Shown here one piece after another: positions 1 through 28,670 of a stretch of 64,000 nucleotides of DNA. Numbering within the stretch: the stretch's first letter is position 1; every line of letters starts with the position of its first letter. This stretch comes from Leptospiraceae bacterium (GTDB taxonomy: Bacteria; Spirochaetota; Leptospiria; Leptospirales; Leptonemataceae). Below the pieces are notes generated by a model. That model did no database searches. It was not told the origin of the DNA and was given only the letters and a program-made list of their open reading frames with translations. The position numbers and the translations under genes were made by a program. Where the stretch lies: positions 1-64,000 of the forward strand of contig JAVJNR010000001.1 of the NCBI GenBank assembly GCA_040217195.1, written 5' to 3'.

Positions 1-144
1 CTGTGACGAAGGCCGTCGGCGCCCGGAGCGTGCCCTCTAAGACCTGATATTCTGCACGCTCCGGGGAGAAGCCGACGGCCGGAGAGCGCGGAAACCCGAG
101 GAGCGAGCGAAAGCGAGCCCGCAGCGCTTAAAGTGCAGTTATGC
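1..144 (-). repeat. attC-like recombination site A (partial, truncated by window edge)
   Basis: Shares GAGAGCGCGGAAACCCGAGGA (82-102) and CGCAGCGCTTAAAGTGCAGTTA (120-141) with sites B and C; internal stems 11-20/71-80 and 23-33/54-64; core GTTATGC at 138-144. Confidence 0.85.
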
Positions 145-158
145 GCCGTTGCCAATTC

Positions 159-788
159 TTAAACGGTGGAGAGGATTAATTTGACTATGCCTTCGATCCG
201 GAAATCGTCAGCCACGGTAAAGGCTGGGTACTTTTCTGAATTGATTGATTGTAGAATCGGTGCTGATTCACTTTTAATCGATGGGACATACTTTTTGATC
301 AGTACTTGGCCTTGATTGACACATACAACGAGGTCTCCTGCATCCGCGGTTTGGGAAATCCGAGCTATGAGCAAGTCACCAGGATTGATACGAGGCATCA
401 TTGAATCTCCTTTGGCTCTAAGTGCAAAGGCCTCCTCGGGTGGAAATGGAATCATTTTGGAATATAGGGGGATGCGTTCGACCGGGTCTCCATCTAATAC
501 CGAACCGTTTGGACCACATTGTCCGCTTCCGTACCTGTTAATGTATACGATGGTACGTGCGGCCTTTTCTTCCGAAAGGATCTTATAGTCCCGGGTATTT
601 CCGGGGTTCCGCCAGAGGTGTCCTTTTTCCTCCAGTTGGAGAATATGGTGGCGTACTAAGTTGGGAGAGGTGAGATTCAGCTCCTCCATCAGCTCACGGT
701 AAGACAATGGCTCGTCTATATTCTGTTTCAGTAAATCGAGCAACTTCTGTTGCGTAGGGTGAAGTTGATTCTTCTTTGATCTTGCCAT
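159..788 (-). CDS. LexA-like repressor (N-terminal winged HTH + S24 autopeptidase), cassette-borne
   Basis: LexA-type HTH (PLSYRELMEELNLTSPNLVRHHILQLEEKG), Cys-Gly putative cleavage site (GQCG), catalytic Ser (KGDSM) and Lys (LIKK). Confidence 0.9.
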   Translation of the reverse strand: MARSKKNQLHPTQQKLLDLLKQNIDEPLSYRELMEELNLTSPNLVRHHILQLEEKGHLWRNPGNTRDYKILSEEKAARTIVYINRYGSGQCGPNGSVLDGDPVERIPLYSKMIPFPPEEAFALRAKGDSMMPRINPGDLLIARISQTADAGDLVVCVNQGQVLIKKYVPSIKSESAPILQSINSEKYPAFTVADDFRIEGIVKLILSTV

Positions 789-865
789 ATACTAAATGCA
801 TGTTGGGTAGTTCTGGCCACGAAAGAAAAAGGGCTATGAACAATTAAAAAGTCGCCGGACAATCT

Positions 866-884
866 GAACAACTATATTGTACAA
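866..884. promoter_or_regulatory. Candidate operator in the divergent lexA-like/DUF3892 intergenic region
   Basis: Imperfect inverted repeat TGAACAA-N5-TTGTACA; a further TGAACAA near 837; direct repeat TCGACCA x2 (888-905) just before the AGGAG RBS. Confidence 0.3.
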
Positions 885-915
885 GTATCGACCATATGTC
901 GACCAGGAGTGAGAA

Positions 916-1128
916 ATGCAGAAAAAAAAAGTCGAAGTTACCAAGGAAAGTGCCACTGGTTTGAATCAGAGATTTCGAGACAAGGAAACGAATAGGGAAA
1001 TGACTCGCGGTGAATTCGCGGATGCAATAGAGCGCGGAAAGTATCCGGGCTACCATGTAGAAAAGGCCAACAATAAGAGAGTCCCACGATCCAACCCCGA
1101 CAAATCTAAGGGAAATAATCTAGGATAA
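916..1128 (+). CDS. DUF3892-family small protein (70 aa)
   Basis: C-terminal RSNPD....NNL motif typical of DUF3892; AGGAG RBS upstream. Confidence 0.75.
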   Translation: MQKKKVEVTKESATGLNQRFRDKETNREMTRGEFADAIERGKYPGYHVEKANNKRVPRSNPDKSKGNNLG

Positions 1129-1138
1129 GGAAAATCAA

Positions 1139-1306
1139 ATGAAGCGAGTAAAAGGTCTAGCAGAGCTTCAGCGGGAACTTAAGCAATTAGAAAAGAAGGC
1201 CCGAGAGCTTAACGGAAAGAAATTGCATATTCAAACTGCAGGTAAATCGGAGCAGCAAATTCGGGCAGAGGTTCAGAAGTATGTTCGGAAAGAGCTAGGG
1301 TTTTAA
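1139..1306 (+). CDS. Small basic helical hypothetical protein, 55 aa (MKRVKGLAELQRELKQLEKKARELNGKK...KELGF); not in ORF track
   Basis: Manually translated; AAGGA RBS overlapping the DUF3892 stop; ends just before the cassette terminal repeat. Confidence 0.7.
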   Translation: MKRVKGLAELQRELKQLEKKARELNGKKLHIQTAGKSEQQIRAEVQKYVRKELGF

Positions 1307-1329
1307 TGGTGCCGTAGATTGGCAATGGC

Positions 1330-1562
1330 GCATAACGTACGTCTTTAAGCGAAGTTGCGCGCCTTCTGTGGCGCGCAATTTGGTTTGAGCGGCGGTTGCA
1401 GCCGCGCATTCTAAAATCCCCAAAATGCGCGGCTGCAACGAGGCCAGGCCGAAAGGGAGTTGGTCCGGGCTGGAGTTTCGGCTTCAGCGGCCGTAGTGCC
1501 GAGAGCGCGGAAACCCGAGGACCGAGCGAAGCGAGGCCGCAGCGCTTAAAGTGCAGTTATGC
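1330..1562 (-). repeat. attC-like recombination site B (233 bp)
   Basis: GCATAAC...GTTATGC cores, inner CTTTAAGCG/CGCTTAAAG inverted boxes, stems 1355-1378 and 1395-1439. Confidence 0.9.
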
Positions 1563-1573
1563 GCCGTTGCCCT

Positions 1574-2005
1574 TTATTTCTCAATCCTTAATAGTTCACA
1601 GTTAATCTTGAATATTTCCAGAGAGTCCTTATCGGTGAAGAACTGAAACCGATTCTTAGTGAGAAGCTTGAACCCCGGAGTCTTAGAGAATAGGGAAAGA
1701 AGAGTTTGCGCCGGAAGCTGCAAGAATTCAGCAGAGCATTGACTTGAACTACAGTTCCAATTTCCACGCTCTATCATTGGGGATTTGGGTGCATAGTTCG
1801 ACTGAAGGAAGAAAAGGAATCTCCCGCCTGCATAAAAGACCCACAGGATGGTAGCTTCGTCATTTCCGTAGGAAGAAATGATAAATTCGACATCTGACAG
1901 CGAGCCATCGGGTGCGGCAAATAGCTTCAAGGGAGTAAGAAAGATTACCACCGTTAGAGCTAATGCTATGGTACACTCTCTTTTGTTTAATGGGCAATGG
2001 CGCAT
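1574..2005 (-). CDS. Cassette-encoded hypothetical protein, probable signal peptide
   Basis: ORF fills the cassette between sites B and C; hydrophobic N-terminus (IALALTVVIFLTPLKLFA); stop adjacent to the terminal repeat; start codon uncertain. Confidence 0.6.
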   Translation of the reverse strand: MRHCPLNKRECTIALALTVVIFLTPLKLFAAPDGSLSDVEFIISSYGNDEATILWVFYAGGRFLFFLQSNYAPKSPMIERGNWNCSSSQCSAEFLQLPAQTLLSLFSKTPGFKLLTKNRFQFFTDKDSLEIFKINCELLRIEK

Positions 2006-2233
2006 AACGTATGTCTTTAAGCGAAGTCGCGCGCCTTTTGTGGCGCGCGATTTGGTTTCCAAGCGCGCCTGCAGCCGTGCGCTATAAATTCCCCCAAAGC
2101 ACGGCTGCAGCGAGGCCAGGCCGAGGAGGCATGTTGGGAACGGAATCTTCGGCTTTAGCGGCCGTTCGGCCGAGAGCGCGGAAACCCGAGGAGCGGCCGA
2201 AGGCCGCCCGCAGCGCTTAAAGTGCAGTTAGGC
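2002..2233 (-). repeat. attC-like recombination site C (232 bp)
   Basis: GCATAAC...GTTAGGC cores; homologous to site B with compensatory changes in stems 2027-2050 and 2069-2110. Confidence 0.9.
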
Positions 2234-2245
2234 GAAGTGTGCCCC

Positions 2246-2713
2246 TCAGTTGTTTTTCTGTTGCTGCAGATTTGCGGCTGCCTCAATACTATCGACCTTA
2301 TAGACTCGGCTGGCAGGTACCCATTCTGGGTTTCCCTGTAGCTGGTGCTGCACATCGTAGTAATCCTCAGCAAAGTTGACAATGCGGAGTCGGTAGGAGA
2401 ACCCTACCGACTGGCCCAAACCGGGGTCTTCGTCTTGAATGATGGTTAGTGTGTACTCGCAGCTTGAGTGCCATTCGATTCTGGCTCGTTTGAATTTGCT
2501 CGGAAACAGTCTGTAAGTGGTCTGAAACCGACCGTCTCGTTCAAATATGAGAAAGAGTCCCGATTCAAGAGTCACGTGAAAGGCCCCTTCATGTAAATAT
2601 GAGCAGTCCACTGGAATATCCTTTGACAAGCTGGGTTCATCATCCGCGTGCGCAAGGAGGATATTGGAAAGAAGGAGCATAGTTAAGGCTCCCGAGATCA
2701 ATACATTCTTCAT
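2246..2713 (-). CDS. Cassette-encoded secreted hypothetical protein (155 aa)
   Basis: AGGAG RBS before MKNVLISGALTMLLLSNILLAHA signal peptide; TGA stop abuts the terminal repeat. Confidence 0.75.
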   Translation of the reverse strand: MKNVLISGALTMLLLSNILLAHADDEPSLSKDIPVDCSYLHEGAFHVTLESGLFLIFERDGRFQTTYRLFPSKFKRARIEWHSSCEYTLTIIQDEDPGLGQSVGFSYRLRIVNFAEDYYDVQHQLQGNPEWVPASRVYKVDSIEAAANLQQQKNN

Positions 2714-2749
2714 TATTTCTCCTGAGATTATTGGTTTTGGGCACATTTC

Positions 2750-2982
2750 GCCTAACGTCTATTACCCGATCCATCGCAGACAGGTACAATTCTGGCCAGA
2801 GCTCGGGACAATGCCGAACTTTTGGTTCGCAGTTGCAGTTATGCTGAACATAAGTCGAACTCACCGCATCCCGGTGTTCGCTTAACCGTTTCAGGTTTGG
2901 CCGGAATAAGGACAATAGGCGAACCTTTTGTATTTTCGGGTTCGTCTTGAGAGTTCGGGATAAATCCGTCTTGCAGTTATTA
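2750..2982 (-). other. Putative attI-like primary site between the integrase stop and the first cassette
   Basis: Ends on the minus strand in AC-GTTAGGC like the attC junctions, but its body is unrelated to sites A-C; several CGAAC/GTTCG hairpins. Confidence 0.5.
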
Positions 2983-4023
2983 ACCGGCTCTTTGCATCAT
3001 TTCCAGTGGGCTTTTGATGCTTGTCAAGCGGCCTGTGGAAACGTGGGTATAGACCTGGGTGGTCCGGGCCGATGCATGCCCCAGTAGTTGTTGGATGTAC
3101 CGCAGATCGATCCCCTGTTCCAGTAGATGTGTGGCAAATGCATGCCGAAGCCCGTGTATAGAGACCTTCTTCTCGATGTTCGCTCTTTTCAGAGCAACCT
3201 GAAAGATCTTTTCCATAGATCGAATGTGCATCGGGCCGGATTCAATTCCTTCAAAAAGCCATCGCGATGGGCGATAGCGTTTCAGGTATTCCAGGGTAAG
3301 CTTCTGCGCTGAATCGGAGAAGATGCTGATTCGGTCCTTCTTTCCTTTTCCAGAGCGGACAGACAGAGTGCCTCTGTGAAAGTCCAGATCTACGGTTCTC
3401 AGATTTGCTGCTTCGCTGACTCTTAGCCCGGCCGAGTATACAATAGTGAGCAGTGTGCGATGCTTCAGGTTGATGGTCGACTCCAGCAAAATGAAGACCT
3501 CATTCAGGCTCAAGACGCTGGGAAGCTTTCTACCGCGTTTGCCGTGGCCGATCCGGAACATGGATCTCTTGCCAAGAATCTTTCCATGATAGAATCGGAT
3601 TGCAGAAATGCCCAGACCGAAGGTTGAATCCGATATCTCCCTGGATTCGCTCCAGTGGACCAGAAATCTTCGGGCATCCTGCTCATCGATTCTTCTGGCT
3701 GACTTACCTGCAAAAACAATAAGCATCCGGTTAATCCATTCGTAGGCATCTCTGGTTTGCTCACTGTATCTTCTTAACTTAAGTTCATCCCGCAGATCAC
3801 CAAGGTTCAGTATTCCTTCAAATTTGATACGAACGTAGCCCAGCCGAGTGATAGCCTTTAGCGGATCATCTTCTTGAGGTACCACCCAACAATTTAGTTT
3901 ATCATCGTACCTTGACTCTGGAATTTGAATTAGAAGATCCTTGATTTCTGAATAGTAACTGGAACGTAGCGAAAGTTCGCCGGGCCCATAGCAATCTACG
4001 CGAACCGTGATTCGGTCTGCCAT
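2980..4023 (-). CDS. Tyrosine recombinase (integron-like integrase, SAM-like N domain + catalytic domain)
   Basis: GLRVSE (R), GKGKKDR (K), HGLRH (HxxR), LLGH, TTQVY (Y); LKLRRYSEQTRDAY SAM_4-type start; adjacent cassette array. Confidence 0.92.
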   Translation of the reverse strand: MADRITVRVDCYGPGELSLRSSYYSEIKDLLIQIPESRYDDKLNCWVVPQEDDPLKAITRLGYVRIKFEGILNLGDLRDELKLRRYSEQTRDAYEWINRMLIVFAGKSARRIDEQDARRFLVHWSESREISDSTFGLGISAIRFYHGKILGKRSMFRIGHGKRGRKLPSVLSLNEVFILLESTINLKHRTLLTIVYSAGLRVSEAANLRTVDLDFHRGTLSVRSGKGKKDRISIFSDSAQKLTLEYLKRYRPSRWLFEGIESGPMHIRSMEKIFQVALKRANIEKKVSIHGLRHAFATHLLEQGIDLRYIQQLLGHASARTTQVYTHVSTGRLTSIKSPLEMMQRAG

Positions 4024-4749
4024 ACTTAGAGGATGTCTGCAAAAAGGTAATTGTCTCGCAATTCTCTGTCCGTACGGAGCTCCGCCCGGTAAGTCCCAGC
4101 AATTTGAATATATGCTTGGATTTTTGCAATTCTGTTTTTTTTAAGGATATGATGCAAGCTCTCTTACAATGGAAGTGTGCATATTTTTTCGACATGGGGT
4201 TGAAATAAAATCGGCTTGGCAGCTAAAGGGAGTCCTATCTGGAGACGACCGCCAATGGCAACCTGATTGGACGAGCAAGCGCAATGCAGAGTTCATCCGT
4301 TCGATAAAAAATTGAGGTCAGGGAACTTAGAGCGATTTACAGGGAAGCAACAGCCGTCCCGCGGGTTGTTTCGGAACCGCAGAACGGAAACTGGACCTAC
4401 CGATGCATAGACATTTTAGCACGCTTCGTGGAGATCGGTTTCGAGTCTTTCCGGGTGCCGGACTCAGGCGGCCGTTTTAGTTTCTGAGCCAGCCATGGAG
4501 TCCCGACTCAAGTGCTGCGAGAACTAAACCCATCAAGAATGATCTACTGAACCCGTGCCTTTTCCCCTCGGGCATCCATTTCGGTTCTCGGATTGGAGGC
4601 CGGGCATGCAAGCCATGTTACATAATTCCGGACTCGGGGATATTACTGGATTCTGCTTACGGTTGGTCCTGCTGGATCGTTCAGGTCAATAGCTCCCTTC
4701 CATCCTGCCGATTTCTTCGGGTTTGACCTCGGCGGAAAAATCACGTTTG

Positions 4750-5050
4750 GTTCGGTCGAATCGTTTGGAGTTGGACCAAACGTATAGCTTGCGGCAGATT
4801 CCGTCGAATCGTTTGGGATTGGAACAAACGTATAGCTTGCGGTTGATTCCGTCGAATCGTTTGGGATTGGAACAAACGTATAGCTTGCGGCTGATTCCGT
4901 CCAATCGTTCGGGGTTGGATCAGGCGTATTGCTTGCGGTTGTTTTGGCCGGGCCGTTCGAATTCCGATCCGGCGTATTGCTCGAAGTTAATTCTACTGGA
5001 ATGTTCTGGTCTGAGTCCGGCCGGTAACCTGCGATTGGTCCGGCTGGACG
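4750..5050. repeat. 48-bp tandem repeat, about 4 well-conserved plus 2-3 degenerate copies
   Basis: GTCGAATCGTTTGG recurs at 4755, 4803, 4851 and (degenerate) 4899. Confidence 0.85.
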
Positions 5051-5140
5051 GTTCAGATTTGAACTTGCCAGAAGGGGCGCACTCCGGATTGGCCGACGGA
5101 TAATCCAGAGCGCTGTGAATGGCTGGTCTGAGCCAGGAGT

Positions 5141-8100
5141 CTAATCATCACCCGGAGCGGCGGGCAAGCTGATGTTGAATCGCTCCAGAACAGTAGCCCC
5201 AAAGTTCTTTAGATCCTCTGCGATCAGGTAAAGACAGGGAACCAGAACCAGGGTAATAAAAGTAGCAAAGACCAGACCGTACCCGAAGGATAGAGCGAGG
5301 GGTGCGACGAAGGCATCTTCTCCACCAATTCCATATACCGTGGGGATCAGCCCCAGAACGGTAGTCAACGAGGTGAGCAATACCGGCCTGAATCGCATAG
5401 AACCGGCTCTTACCACTGCATTGTGAACATCCGGTTCCTCTTTCCTTCGATTAATGATAAATTGAACAAGAACCAGAGTATTCGAAACAACAACTCCGGC
5501 AAGGGAGACCACACCCAGTAATGACATAAAGGAAAGTGGCTCACCGTGGGCCAGCAGGGCCAGAATCACACCTACCAATCCGAATGGAATGGCACTCATC
5601 ACAACCACGGGAAGAATCAATGATCTGAAAAAACTGGCCAGGATCATATAGATGGTGAGCATCGCAAATCCAAACAGAACCGCCAGGTTGCCCAGGGATT
5701 CATTTCGGTCTTCTTCTTCACCACCATAGTTGATCGTGTAGCCCGGATAACGGCTCTCTATGTCCTGAAATTTCTCAATCAGCTTCTGATTCACTGCAGC
5801 GGAAGTAATTGTTCCTTTCTCCACGTTTGCCTGGACCTTGCCCACCCTGCGGAAGTTCAGACGATTGATCATGCTGTATCCAGGAGTGGGTTCGCCCCAG
5901 TCCGTAACCGCAGAAAGTGGAACCAGACCACCCTTGTTGTTGGACACATACACATCCCTGAGATTTTCTTCACCGCTTCTTGCCCTGTCCGGAAAGCGAA
6001 CTCGAACCTCAATTTCATCTTCCCCTTCATTGACGGTGGTTGCTATGGCTCCATCGAATGCGGAGCGAATTGTAGTGGCGATGGTGGCCACGCTCAGTTC
6101 TGACCTGGCTGCTTTGACTTCATTTACATCGAACCGGTATTCTAGTTTTCCCGGTTCCAGGTCTGTAGAAACATCGAATACTCCATTAATTCCTCTCAGA
6201 TAAGTCATGTACTCATCGGCGATGGTTCTCAGTGTTTCGATATCATCTCCACGAATTTCCACATTCACGGGCATACCCACCGGCGGGCCCCCTTCCTGGA
6301 TTCTGAAATCCAGAGAAAGATCCTGATGAATCATCCCTTCTTTGCGAGCCGCTTCCGTGGCCTTTCGAAGGGAAGTCAGCATATCGCCTGCATCTTTTTC
6401 CCTTTCTCCCACAGGAGTGAGGTTCAGGATTAATGTACCTCTATGCGTGGCCTCAGAGGGAGCTGGATCCGTAGGATTGGCCAGTTCTACTCCCACTCTG
6501 GTTTGCATGGACTCCAGGTCCTCGGGAGGCAGAGTTTTCAGTGCCAGGTCTTCCAGAGGCTTCAGTGCCTGCAGGTTGGTTTGCAGATTGGTTCCCTGAG
6601 GCATGCGAGTCCTCACCAGGATTCCTTCCCCTCCTCCGCCTGGAAAGAAAACGAATCCCAGGGCAAATGCAGCAAGAACCAGAGAAAGAAAAAATACACC
6701 GATCAGTGAGCCCACAGCCAGGTATCGTCTGTGCAGACAGAATGAAAGAAATTTCGCATAGCCATCCGTCAGAGTGCCGAAGAATCCACCGGAGTTTCCG
6801 TCGCTTCCATCGCTGGCCCCTTCCAGGCGATCCACGTCTTTGACTCGAGCGAATGTCTCTAGATGGCTGGGCAGGATGAACATGGCTGCCAGCCAGCTGG
6901 CGCAGAGACAAAGAATGATTACCATGGGGATGGACCAGACAAACTTTCCTACGATTCCAGTCATATAAAGGAGAGGAAAGAATGCTGCGGTGATACAGAG
7001 AAGGGTGGTCGTTACTGGCCAGAAGACCTCTGCGGTACCGGTCTCAACAGCCTCCACGCGGCTCATCCCTTCTTCCATGTACCTGAAACCGTTTTCGGCC
7101 ACCACAATGGAAAAGTCCACGATCATGCCCAGTACCATGACCAGTGCGAACATCGAAACAACATTGAGTGTGATTCCAACTGTGGACATTCCCATGAAGG
7201 CCACCATAAAAGCCACAGGAATGGACATACCCACAATAAAGCTCATGCGAAATCCCAGGATGAGAATCAATGTGATTGCAAGCAGTGCAAAGCCGATCCC
7301 TCCATTGACCAGAAGGCTGGATAAACGGGTCCGGACAAACCGGCTTTGATCATTGAAATACTGAAGTTCCACACCTTCGGGAAGCTGTGCTCCTTTATAC
7401 TGCTCCAGGCTATTTTTCAAGGTGTCTGCAAGAACCAGCATATCTGATTCTTTTTTCTTCCAGACTTTCATAATGATGGCTGGCTGGGCATCAAATCGCT
7501 CCAGCAAATCAGGCTCTTCATAGGTATCGATTACTGTGGCCAGATCTTTCACACGCAGGGCTCCACCGCCTATGTTGGCCTGAACCACTGTTTGTGCAAT
7601 TTCCTGGGCATTCCGGTATTGTTCTTTGGTGCGCAGAAGATATTCGTTGGGTCCTTTTCGAATAACTCCGCCAGGCAGGTTCAGGTTTCGATTGGCAATG
7701 GACTGGATTACATCATTAAATCCAACTCTGTCCCTGCGAAGTGCTTCTGGTTGAACCTCCACGAGATACTCTCTATCCCGGTAACCGTATAGCTCCACCT
7801 CGGCCACACCATCCACGTCATAGATATAATCCTCCAGATGCTGAGCCGTTTGACGAAGCTTCCTGTAGTCTTCCAGTCCACCATCGCCTCCAAATAATGC
7901 GACATCTACAACTGGTTGAGTATCAAAAGTGATTTCTTCTACTATAGGTAGCTCTGAATTGGCGGGCAAATCGTCCACCGTTGCATCTACCCCGTCTTTA
8001 ATGTCATCGATGATCTTCTTCTTATCCGAAGCATCGGGATCGATTTCCAGTACAAATACTGAGATGTTTTCCAGGTTATAGGAATTTACCTTATCCAATC

Positions 8101-8341
8101 CGCTAATGGAGCGGAGTTCCTTTTCTATGGGAATACTGACCAGTTGTTCGATTTCATCTGGCGAAGCGCCTGGATAGATGGTGGTGATGGATACCCGGTC
8201 AAAGTTAACATTGGGAAAAGCTTCCCGATTCATGTTAACAATGGTTCGAGTTCCTGCCAGAAGGATCATGACTACCAGAAGGTTGATAAATAGACGCTGA
8301 CGAACAAAGAAGTGAATGATTTTGATCATAAATATTCCCAA
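5141..8341 (-). CDS. Efflux RND transporter permease subunit (AcrB/AcrD/AcrF family)
   Basis: 1066 aa; YPGASPDEIEQLV, LGMIVDFSIVVAEN, RFRPVLLTSLTTVLGLIP motifs. Confidence 0.95.
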   Translation of the reverse strand: MGIFMIKIIHFFVRQRLFINLLVVMILLAGTRTIVNMNREAFPNVNFDRVSITTIYPGASPDEIEQLVSIPIEKELRSISGLDKVNSYNLENISVFVLEIDPDASDKKKIIDDIKDGVDATVDDLPANSELPIVEEITFDTQPVVDVALFGGDGGLEDYRKLRQTAQHLEDYIYDVDGVAEVELYGYRDREYLVEVQPEALRRDRVGFNDVIQSIANRNLNLPGGVIRKGPNEYLLRTKEQYRNAQEIAQTVVQANIGGGALRVKDLATVIDTYEEPDLLERFDAQPAIIMKVWKKKESDMLVLADTLKNSLEQYKGAQLPEGVELQYFNDQSRFVRTRLSSLLVNGGIGFALLAITLILILGFRMSFIVGMSIPVAFMVAFMGMSTVGITLNVVSMFALVMVLGMIVDFSIVVAENGFRYMEEGMSRVEAVETGTAEVFWPVTTTLLCITAAFFPLLYMTGIVGKFVWSIPMVIILCLCASWLAAMFILPSHLETFARVKDVDRLEGASDGSDGNSGGFFGTLTDGYAKFLSFCLHRRYLAVGSLIGVFFLSLVLAAFALGFVFFPGGGGEGILVRTRMPQGTNLQTNLQALKPLEDLALKTLPPEDLESMQTRVGVELANPTDPAPSEATHRGTLILNLTPVGEREKDAGDMLTSLRKATEAARKEGMIHQDLSLDFRIQEGGPPVGMPVNVEIRGDDIETLRTIADEYMTYLRGINGVFDVSTDLEPGKLEYRFDVNEVKAARSELSVATIATTIRSAFDGAIATTVNEGEDEIEVRVRFPDRARSGEENLRDVYVSNNKGGLVPLSAVTDWGEPTPGYSMINRLNFRRVGKVQANVEKGTITSAAVNQKLIEKFQDIESRYPGYTINYGGEEEDRNESLGNLAVLFGFAMLTIYMILASFFRSLILPVVVMSAIPFGLVGVILALLAHGEPLSFMSLLGVVSLAGVVVSNTLVLVQFIINRRKEEPDVHNAVVRAGSMRFRPVLLTSLTTVLGLIPTVYGIGGEDAFVAPLALSFGYGLVFATFITLVLVPCLYLIAEDLKNFGATVLERFNISLPAAPGDD

Positions 8342-8719: not shown

Positions 8720-8776
8720 GGACTAGCTACAGACAGGACTAGCCACAGACAGGATTAGCTACAGACAGGATTAGCC
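8720..8776. repeat. 16-bp tandem repeat x3.5 (GGAYTAGCYACAGACA)
   Basis: Direct inspection. Confidence 0.9.
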
Positions 8777-8847: not shown

Positions 8848-9711
8848 CTATGGCTCCAGTTCATCTGGAAGAACCGATTTCTTGTTTCTACCCAGCCAGA
8901 AGAATATCGTTGTTAATGCCATCAGAGGAGCCAGAAACCAGAGAGGATAACCTGCATAGTTCAGGTTTTCAATGGTGTTTCCAAATGAATCGGAAGAGCC
9001 AGGCAGACTTAGATCCATGGCAAAATGGTTGGCCTTTCGCAGAACTACACTCTGACCGTCCGGGAGCCGCAAGACATTGGTATGCCCCGGGTTTTCGGAG
9101 CCGGCCAGGATAACTACATTCAATGGGCTGGATTCTGGTTTCCAGTTTCTCAGTTGAAACTCTATCATCGCAAAGTGCCTGTCTGTTGCGACTCGAATTG
9201 GATTGGGCTCTGCCGGCAGTCCTTCCCGGGAAACTATCTTCAGTCCTGATTCTATGTAATGAACAACTGCTTTCTTTAAGTCCTCATCGCTCAATGTCCG
9301 AACGTGGATTCCTGATTTTTCCATGGCGCGATACAGATCATCTCCAAAGTGCATTTCCAGCACCCATCCCTGGTTTGTATTTCGCAGGAAAAGCACTGAC
9401 GGCCGATCCTGCGCCAACAATGCAGAAGAAAGAAAGAGCAGAGCGGTAACCATTAATCTGGTGGCTGGCATCGTTGCAGCGATGAGCGCCTTGATAAAGG
9501 CCCTGAATCTATTCGCTGATTCAAATTTGTGTCCATTGAAGGATGTGGTCTTGTTGCCCGCCAGAAGAGAGCTGTTTTTATTCGCTGATTCAGAGTTGTG
9601 TCCGTTGAAGGATGCAATCTGGATGCCCGTCCGAAGGGGGCTGACTATCTGCGCAGATCCATAAATTGGTCCGTTGAGTTGGAGCCGGATTTCTTTATTT
9701 GCAACTTTCAT
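8848..9711 (-). CDS. Hypothetical exported/membrane-anchored protein
   Basis: GAGGAGG RBS before MKVANKE; internal signal-like segment (LMVTALLFLSSALLA) and C-terminal TM helix; true start may be later. Confidence 0.55.
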   Translation of the reverse strand: MKVANKEIRLQLNGPIYGSAQIVSPLRTGIQIASFNGHNSESANKNSSLLAGNKTTSFNGHKFESANRFRAFIKALIAATMPATRLMVTALLFLSSALLAQDRPSVLFLRNTNQGWVLEMHFGDDLYRAMEKSGIHVRTLSDEDLKKAVVHYIESGLKIVSREGLPAEPNPIRVATDRHFAMIEFQLRNWKPESSPLNVVILAGSENPGHTNVLRLPDGQSVVLRKANHFAMDLSLPGSSDSFGNTIENLNYAGYPLWFLAPLMALTTIFFWLGRNKKSVLPDELEP

Positions 9712-12119: not shown

Positions 12120-12380
12120 AGGTGCGCAGGCTACAGTACGGTCCGAATGATAGTCTACCTAAAAATAGTCCCCGGACACTAACGCCGTTGAACTCCCTTC
12201 GGATCCAGATGATCAAGGATTCAGCGCCACAGGTAGTCTTTCATTTTCTGCAGAGTCAAAGGAATGCAGAAAACGGATCGCAACGGTTGGGTCATGCAGT
12301 CCGATTGAAGTGCTGGAAGTGCGAAGCGAAGCCCCTGCCGGGTTTCCATAAATTGCATTTTTGCTCTGCAAATCCCACAG

Positions 12381-12438
12381 CCTGGACCGGAGGGCGCCTC
12401 CATTGCCATCCTGGACCGGAGGGCGCCTCCATTGCCAT
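12381..12438. repeat. Perfect 29-bp tandem duplication
   Basis: CCTGGACCGGAGGGCGCCTCCATTGCCAT x2. Confidence 0.9.
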
Positions 12439-25674: not shown

Positions 25675-25868
25675 CTCGGGCGGGAGTTCGGCTTAAAACG
25701 ACGGTGCGTTGTTTATGCGAACCTGCGCGGGTATTGGGCTCCCTCGGGCCGGAGTTCGGCTTAAAACGACGGTGCGTTGTTTATGCGAACCTGCGCGGGT
25801 ATTGGGCTCCCTCGGGCCGGAGTTCGGCTTAAAACGACGGCGCGCTGTTTATGCAAACCTGCGCGGGG
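25675..25868. repeat. 68-bp tandem repeat x~3
   Basis: GGAGTTCGGCTTAAAACGACGG at 25683, 25751, 25819. Confidence 0.92.
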
Positions 25869-26116
25869 CTGAAAGGATGATTCATCGTGGATCGAGCGGA
25901 GTAACGCTAAGATGCTGACACCTTGTAACAATACAGGCTCAGTCTGGATGAATTTATTTCCTGTTGTCCCTGGACAAAAAGTATCCTTCCACTGGATCAA
26001 ATGTAAGCTTTCTGGAATCAATCTGTCCAGGGTCTAACTTCATTTCTGTGATGTTAGCAGAAATGAAGTCGTCTGGAGCATTAGTCTTTCTTTTTTTGCA
26101 ACCTGACAATTCATGT

Positions 26117-28403: not shown

Positions 28404-28476
28404 TATCCCTGGAAGCATACCATTTTCTTTCCCACCGGCCGGACCATTGCAAACCGGCTGCCTGTTACCACTCTCA

Positions 28477-28670
28477 GAGTTCGACTTAAAGCTGCCGCGC
28501 GTTGTTTATGCGAACTCGCGGGCGTATTGAGCTCCCCTGGGCCGGGTTCGACATAAAGCTGCCGTGCATTGTTTATTTGAACTCGCGCGTGTATGGAGCT
28601 CCTCTGGGCGGAGTTCGACCTAAAGCGGCGCAGCGCTGGTTATGCGCACCCGTGCCGGTATTGAGCTGCC
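28477..28670. repeat. 67-bp tandem repeat x~3, same family as 25675-25868
   Basis: GTTCGAC at 28479, 28546, 28613; shares GTTCG.CTTAAA, GCGTTGTTTATGCGAAC and GTATTG.GCTCC with the 68-bp unit. Confidence 0.85.

Follow-up and report, generated by a model that had tools for sequence, protein, structure and literature searches.

A gene-cassette array adjoining an I2-less tyrosine recombinase with a HARP-like domain in a Leptospiraceae bacterium: a putative integron variant

The first 64,000 nucleotides of contig JAVJNR010000001.1 (C6) from a Leptospiraceae bacterium (assembly GCA_040217195.1), called the window below, carry close to the contig start a gene for a tyrosine recombinase of 347 amino acids (aa) that lies upstream of, and in the same orientation as, an array of gene cassettes. 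The gene occupies 2980..4023 on the minus strand. Its product has an N-terminal HARP-like domain (residues 1-72; 3808..4023, minus strand), a core-binding SAM-like domain (PF13495, residues 76-152; 3568..3798, minus strand) and a catalytic domain (PF00589, residues 182-330; 3034..3480, minus strand) with an intact RKHRHY set (R201, K226, H290, R293, H316, and Y325). The recombinase thus possesses the SAM-like core-binding domain and the full RKHRH(Y) set of an integron integrase (IntI).

The original prediction held that this enzyme lacks the insertion containing helix I2, which counts as an essential and defining feature of integron integrases, and our comparisons bore this out. Residues 235-268 of the recombinase (34 aa; 3220..3321, minus strand), where IntI has ~43 extra residues including I2, face residues 169-245 (77 aa) of VchIntIA (2a3v) in a phmmer alignment that falls into two pieces, a deficit of 43 residues, and the archaeal XerA structures (4a8e and 5hxy) align in one unbroken piece. 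The spacing from GLR to HxLRH was 92 in the recombinase versus 134 in classical IntI. The IntI profile TIGR02249 gave a score of 182.7, below its cut-off of 265, with the match split into two stretches, and the profiles of XerC (TIGR02224, 172.7 against a cut-off of 335) and XerD (TIGR02225, 171.3 against 330) fell short as well. The top NCBIfam match was NF040815 (site-specific tyrosine recombinase/integron integrase), a name that some homologues of the recombinase bear, at 202.6 with the cut-off of 220 not reached; the top match in both sequence and fold was 2a3v. In a quick IQ-TREE run of 73 rows, 27 classical IntIs formed one clade (SH-aLRT 100, branch 1.2), and the recombinase stood outside it in a separate clade of 27 rows (SH-aLRT 98). 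Since it fails on I2, on the TIGR02249 cut-off and on the clade, the recombinase is not an IntI. The order of I2 gain versus loss cannot be read from this tree, given its unresolved base and the long branches of the Xer outgroup.

Downstream of the recombinase lie an attI-like site and then an oriented cassette array, which is the arrangement of an integron. The attI-like region between the integrase stop codon and the first cassette (2757..2979, minus strand) folds weakly (z -2.5) and contains two copies of a 10-nucleotide (nt) motif, one directly behind the stop codon, as well as several half-site-like pieces that are possible accessory sites. The attI-like core (2739..2767, minus strand) reads TAA, a 6-nt spacer and TTA, a dif-like spacing, with the G of GTT at 2756; the crossover presumably lies within this GTT. 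The final ~11 nt ahead of the crossover were similar in loci L001, L002, and L004, and the sequence ahead of the first cassette differs from the array repeats. Cassette 1 (2009..2756, minus strand) carries an open reading frame (ORF) of 166 aa (2746→2246) and cassette 2 (1337..2008, minus strand) one of 143 aa from its first ATG (2005→1574); neither cassette had a family in PADLOC, Pfam, or PHROGs. Cassette 3 (1..1336, minus strand), whose site is cut by the contig end, holds a LexA-like repressor gene (159..788, minus strand; PF01726 and PF00717), with HTH-level matches only in PADLOC, and two small divergent ORFs, one DUF3892-like but below the cut-off (916-1128) and one of 55 aa (1139-1306).

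The cassettes start at 2756, 2008, and 1336, and the first ~17 nt of each are complementary to the end of the same cassette, position 11 (A·C) excepted. In cassette 1 this pairing covers the first 18 nt, and the ends of cassette 2 pair in cis. Three attC-like sites, to which no strand is assigned, accompany the cassettes. Site 1 (1991..2244, ~254 nt, fold z -5.7) consists of an outer arm, a 4x6 bubble, an unbroken 9-bp inner arm and a multibranched interior; site 2 (1319..1573) measures ~255 nt with a fold z of -7.4, and site 3 is partial, at the contig start (1..155). The extrahelical base in the inner (L) arm and the symmetric central bubble of a classical attC were absent from the window sites. 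A blastn search of the genome (G000, 93.7% complete) returned no further copies of the repeat, a search aimed at diverged sites not having been made. The single Rfam match in window 1-5200 was below the gathering score and was rejected. In the contigs of four runs, contig X1 spanned the integrase with cassettes 1 and 2, and the repeats there showed many different flanks; such contigs by nature do not display circles or junction frequencies, and they gave no cover of cassette 3, on which they are uninformative.

The closest relatives are labelled Leptonemataceae, Leptospiraceae, or Spirochaetaceae. A congener array (L002 with the adjoining L038-L040) comprised at least 80 repeats over ~70 kb and ran on beyond the sequence examined. 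L002 has the same AcrB-family neighbour as the window but other cassettes, with no blastn match between the cassettes of the two; at the protein level, cassette 1 of the window has two homologues in the congener array (45% and 36%). Six pairs of congener cassettes were ≥98.7% identical, one of them formed by the first cassette and cassette 70. Like the anatomy of the locus and the structure of its sites, cassette turnover and cassette duplication were therefore seen directly, the former as different cassettes at the same locus and the latter as six near-identical pairs in the set of 80. Short congener cassettes of two groups also recur through the array (bodies ~232-236 nt, 74-92% alike in-group; e.g., cassettes 24, 25, 34, 52, 63, 78, and 80), which are possibly gene-less or contain small ORFs.

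Two Leptospirales families have, as a travelling cassette, a LexA-like repressor joined by a divergent DUF3892-like ORF (window 159-1306). The LexA-like protein of cassette 3 has a 58%-identical homologue with the same neighbour in locus L140 (1066-2136), which belongs to another family, and there the cassette is flanked by that lineage's own repeats and has the position-11 mark, as read by eye. For the homologue in L139 no cassette ends were found. According to the available text of one report, the second lexA of L. interrogans sits in a mosaic region with integrase remnants (PMC3789691).

The GTT and AAC cores are complementary in the circular form of all three window cassettes and all 80 congener cassettes. 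Positions 13-16 of the congener cassettes paired with their own end at 0.94-0.99, compared with 0.25-0.32 for the end of the neighbour, and position 11 was A·C in 80/80. The bottom strand folded better than the top in 79/80 circle-form and 70/80 array-form congener sites, and the consensus fold of 79 distinct rows contained 228 G·T cells versus 6 A·C cells. This G·T bias points to recombination on a folded bottom strand, which we regard as moderately likely.

One site detector was applied to three groups of loci: I2-less, classical with HARP, and classical without HARP. The I2-less Leptospirales set consisted of 10 loci with 103 sites and 83 cassettes, L044 and L050 being left out as too short. 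The interior of its sites measured 129-226 nt, and at least 85 of the 103 had an unbroken inner duplex of ≥8 bp. The bubble was lopsided in 84 of the 92 sites of listed classes, and the other 8 had a symmetric one like those of L046. Cassette ends paired as far as position 17-18, with A·C at position 11 in 76/83 cassettes. Homologues at E≤1e-40 occurred in 120 of 156 genomes of the order Leptospirales, a count that includes shorter homologues, and arrays were looked for in only part of these 120. In the Bacteroidota family of G395, 53/61 genomes matched the recombinase profile at E≤1e-80 (locus L007 there is labelled Flavobacteriaceae), and chained sites were present in 13 of the 20 loci examined. 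Among 116 candidate cassettes from Bacteroidota, 86 had A·C at position 11, and positions 12-14 paired at 0.78, 0.79, and 0.61, although these candidates, at most 14 per locus, include false positives, the detector having fixed positions 1-9 only. The array-form sites paired at only 0.22-0.44 at positions 5-10 but retained A·C at position 11 in 84/96; their bubbles were 3x5 or 3x6, and the unbroken inner duplex was often 6-7 bp. In locus L004, a damaged site and a cassette-like ORF lie in the first ~1 kb past the integrase stop, ahead of the attI-like core, an arrangement resembling a cassette insertion upstream of the usual site. Genome G151 has 13 homologues, several per contig, with the matches listed starting at query residue 79 or later; these are possibly insertion-less recombinases associated with insertion sequences (IS).

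An Xer- or Cre-like recombinase could instead act on double-stranded sites by two ordinary strand exchanges, with the right end of each repeat as a simple site of two ~9-bp arms and the long fold as a by-product. At its right end the repeat forms an inverted repeat, the attI-like core has the dif-like TAA-N6-TTA spacing, and the catalytic domain is colinear with XerA. However, two-strand exchange needs matching spacers, and the attI-like spacer differs from that of the repeat in length and sequence; moreover, three spacer variants coexist within the one congener array (63, 11, and 6 of 80). Neither the own-end pairing to position ~17 nor the invariant wobble nor the G·T bias would be explained, and the poor pairing of Bacteroidota array-form sites at positions 5-10 speaks against it as well. 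We consider this alternative very improbable.

It was also asked whether another enzyme, either XerCD of the host or an IntI that the assembly lacks, moves the array, with the recombinase as a mere neighbour or relic. The assembly is incomplete, some homologues have no array nearby, and XerCD is described as able to recombine folded sites without extrahelical bases (PMC4792948, as far as available). In contrast, the catalytic residues are intact, and the first cassette begins 33-237 nt past the integrase stop in 22 of 24 loci from both phyla; one begins at +363, and one locus has no first cassette within 400 nt. TIGR02249 matched 38 of 301 genomes of the phylum but, at E≤1e-60, 0/61 in the neighbouring family f2, where arrays are present. 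G000 likewise had no TIGR02249 match at this threshold, that is, no classical IntI, and tblastn with the recombinase returned as its only other matches two Xer-like genes with 29-32% identity. The idea of a different enzyme is thus hardly credible, and the recombinase very probably serves the array that it adjoins.

The original prediction had further noted a HARP-like segment at the N-terminus. This held for the family profile and the predicted fold but not as a direct Pfam match. PF07443 (HARP) did not match the recombinase itself at E≤1, but it matched 40 of 77 aligned homologues at E≤0.1 (best 2.4e-6; the 77 were taken from 120 listed, mainly by high query coverage) and 8 of the 26 N-terminal pieces of a second alignment, from which mis-anchored and duplicate rows had been dropped and to which L002 and L004 had been added. 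Its gathering score was reached by no homologue in the scans made. The best PDB match to a profile of the 26 pieces was the HARP domain of SMARCAL1 (4o66, E 2.8e-5), and a profile of 71 distant homologues picked the N-terminus from 30,414 six-frame genome ORFs at E 3.3e-6, the runner-up having E 1.1. The predicted secondary structure of residues 1-72 comprises strands 5-13, 16-21, 38-40, 45-49, and 64-68 and helices 24-33 and 54-59. The domain model (pLDDT 87) resembled the UvsW N-terminus (Z 6.0, rmsd 3.0, 62 aligned), archaeal XPB (Z 5.3) and 4o66 (Z 4.1, rmsd 2.3, 49 aligned). The small damage-recognition domain of XPB belongs to the same group as HARP. Because the unrelated CASTOR1/2 proteins scored Z 5.4-5.6, higher than 4o66, and Foldseek with the N-terminal model returned nothing at E≤0.001, the fold cannot be named by solved-structure search alone. 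In the Atlas, on the other hand, 4 of 10 structure rows were eukaryotic SMARCAL1/HARP-type SNF2 clusters (TM 0.75-0.78 over 69-72 residues); the Atlas feature matches of the domain were all below 0.9 and serve as leads only. On family profile and predicted fold, we consider the label HARP-like justified. The domain is alike to the HARP, UvsW N-terminal, and XPB damage-recognition domains (4o66, 1rif, and 5tnu) in sequence profile and predicted fold, but here it is fused to a recombinase and not to a helicase motor, and the structural scores are middling (Z 4.1-6.0). Other Atlas rows showed clusters of small Bacteroidota proteins (73-101 aa) that resemble a lone HARP-like domain and are either stand-alone modules or fragments, and homologues P0011 and P0017 have an HTH_17 domain ahead of the HARP-like domain.

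Considering that the original prediction implied an exchange of I2 for the HARP-like domain, the classical integrases of the same phylum were compared. Of 30 spirochaete IntI loci with I2, 16 also scored with HARP-like profiles (14 at E≤3e-5); these belong to families f18 and f40 (L054-L063, L066, L069, L070, L073, L074, and L078). Pfam HARP itself matched only 1 of 7 scanned classical IntI N-termini (E 0.059), so the assignment in these enzymes rests on our own profiles. The HARP-bearing classical IntIs retain I2 (spacing 134), and the ones included in the tree fall within the IntI clade. That classical IntIs, too, can carry a HARP-like domain is newly found here from profile scores, and it suggests either a fusion or a retained ancestral domain. 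Eight further classical spirochaete IntIs (L075-L077 and L079-L083) have another N-terminal extension of ~90-100 aa that gave no score with HARP-like profiles.

The sites of these enzymes were of a different type. The classical set with HARP comprised 7 loci, 5 of them with sites (66 sites and 58 cassettes), and three further loci gave none. The site interior was mostly 47-108 nt, in 60/66 sites the bubble was symmetric and a bulged base interrupted the arm after 5-6 bp, and past position 8 the pairing of cassette ends was at background. Classical loci without HARP yielded 21 sites and 12 cassettes in 3 of 10 loci, mostly with a symmetric bubble. The type of attC-like site tracks I2, not HARP, and enzyme and site in the I2-less loci depart from the classical integron pair in matching ways.

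These results bear on whether the HARP-like domain functionally replaces I2, supplying recognition of the folded single-strand site and the choice of strand. The domain is conserved throughout the I2-less family, the window sites are large and branched, and HARP, which has been placed at the UvsW N-terminus, is called a DNA-binding domain specific for junctions (PMC4666394, in the part available). Nevertheless, 16 of the 30 classical IntIs above the TIGR02249 cut-off bear HARP together with I2, so the domain is not simply a substitute, and wherever sites were detected for such enzymes (five loci), they were short attC hairpins that include a bulged base. Furthermore, the I2-less sites lack the feature that I2 binds, which makes a replacement unnecessary. 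Such a substitution is therefore unlikely, and the HARP-like domain is probably not a stand-in for the missing helix; its presence does not follow the absence of I2, and it may contribute to both systems. A junction-binding role is possible but tentative. The prediction that this enzyme recombines hairpin substrates by a different structural route accordingly keeps its general part, given a recombinase at the head of a cassette array, a fold bias toward the bottom strand and an inner arm without a bulge, and loses the exchange of HARP for I2.

In classical integrons, I2 is described as accommodating the extrahelical bases, which choose the strand and block the second exchange (PMC4792948, in its available text). 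The same text describes the CTXphi site as one without extrahelical bases that mimics double-stranded DNA for XerCD. In the I2-less loci, the inner arm has no bulged base, so there is nothing for I2 to hold. We propose that the recombinase would capture circular cassettes at the attI-like site beside its own 3' end and excise them between attC-like sites, with the crossover within GTT. The folded bottom strand would mimic a double-stranded site of the Xer/dif type, with two clean arms and a lopsided unpaired spacer (4x6 in the window sites and mostly 3x6 elsewhere). A fixed T·G wobble on the bottom strand (A·C on the top) lies 11 nt out on the outer arm; together with the adjacent T·A pair, at a fixed distance from the crossover, it may mark the strand or be read by the enzyme. 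The unpaired lopsided spacer might block the second strand exchange, leaving replication to resolve the junction, as reported for CTXphi and XerCD. Only the circular cassette completes the long outer stem, which would tilt the reaction toward integration at the attI-like site. The HARP-like domain could be an accessory junction binder, at the fork of the hairpin base or at the multibranch loop.

Several observations weigh against this proposal. No cassette promoter rose above chance level, the promoter scan having given 3 promoter-like sites where 2.6 were expected by chance. With a genome that is 93.7% complete and an array cut short by the contig end, a second enzyme could be missing. In L046, 8 sites show a symmetric 3x3 bubble, no sites or cassettes were found within reach in L048 and L049, and 7 of the 20 Bacteroidota loci had no array in reach, two of them despite 17 kb downstream. 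The strands differ little in folding energy (mean -3.3 kcal/mol), and the fold bias is the evidence of one lineage, since the 80 congener sites are kin. Finally, the contrast with classical sites is weaker in Bacteroidota, where the inner duplex is often only 6-7 bp. Taking both sides together, we find it quite probable that the locus is a sedentary chromosomal gene-cassette platform, integron-like in its working, with a different pair of enzyme and site.

As in sedentary chromosomal integrons (VchIntIA and its VCR sites), the recombinase of the locus lies beside an attI-like site and a long array in which most cassettes hold a single gene; GTT/AAC cores, own-end pairing, the bottom-strand fold bias and duplicated cassettes are further points in common. 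Unlike theirs, the enzyme of the locus lacks I2, does not reach the TIGR02249 cut-off, stands outside the IntI clade and has an N-terminal HARP-like domain; the sites of the locus are ~255 nt long and branched, with an inner arm free of bulged bases and a lopsided bubble, and its cassette ends pair over ~17 nt, position 11 being a fixed wobble. The integrons of Treponema, stated to be the sole spirochaete clade with integrons and called atypical in that intI is oriented as the cassettes (PMC3607928, in the available part), belong to the same phylum and have the same orientation. The IntIs of family f18, which we take to be Treponema-like, also carry the HARP-like domain, but they have I2 and sit inside the IntI clade, unlike the recombinase here, and most of their sites are hairpins of 47-108 nt that contain a bulged base, the cassette ends pairing no further than position 8. 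With XerCD/dif, CTXphi attP, and XerA, the locus has in common the colinear catalytic domain (XerA), clean arms with an unpaired spacer and the dif-like 6-nt spacing of the attI core; it differs from XerCD in having a dedicated single enzyme beside the array that is below the XerC and XerD cut-offs, in a genome with two separate Xer-like genes.

The accessible material of Smyshlyaev et al. (PMC8138268, 10.1101/542381) defines an "integron-like" subgroup of tyrosine recombinases said to include insertion-less members, with 144 members in Flavobacteriia, 71 in Bacteroidia, and 25 in Spirochaetia in Dataset EV1. The insertion-less members are tied there to IS91 and IS3, and in that material no cassette arrays are mentioned for them and the term HARP had no match in the supplement files. 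IntegronFinder 2.0, which relies on an IntI-specific profile, reported few complete integrons in Bacteroidetes (PMC9024848, as far as available). The available parts of PMC8618304, PMC3789691, PMC12946210, and 10.1101/2024.07.02.601686 contained nothing on I2-less cassette arrays. Our literature search, whose coverage took in few subscription journals and no bioRxiv supplements, found no description of such arrays and no paper joining "HARP domain" with "integrase". As far as searched, the I2-less array is a real and so far undescribed integron variant.

Outside the element, the gene upstream of the integrase is a conserved chromosomal neighbour, the AcrB-family gene (5141..8341, minus strand), in the same arrangement as in L002. 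The interval between the two genes contains five tandem 48-nt units (4696-4983). Short tandem repeats of 16, 69, and 29 nt occur at 8720-8776, 9503-9640, and 12378-12435, respectively, and two clusters, each of three tandem related repeats of 67-68 nt, lie at 25675-25878 and 28468-28669.

It is conceivable, though we hold this loosely, that these loci represent a second, widespread class of integrons, present in most Leptospirales and many Bacteroidota, that keeps the state before I2: a dedicated Xer-like integrase acting on folded sites that have no extrahelical bases and are distinguished by a lopsided spacer and a fixed wobble. The origin of I2 has been termed a chicken-egg paradox (PMC4792948, in the text available). 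If the reading is true, the second class would be the missing step in this paradox of I2 and extrahelical bases, and a large reservoir of cassettes would lie beyond IntI-profile searches. If the recombinase does move the cassettes, there is a second structural way of shuffling them, which would be found at a fixed chromosomal site throughout the Leptospirales and also in the Bacteroidota family. A natural I2-less enzyme makes the origin of single-strand recombination testable, with three site features to mutate (the bubble, the clean inner arm, and the position-11 wobble), and the spirochaete IntIs with both I2 and a HARP-like domain are a ready control for the role of the domain. The cassette pools of these bacteria would at the same time be exposed for gene discovery.

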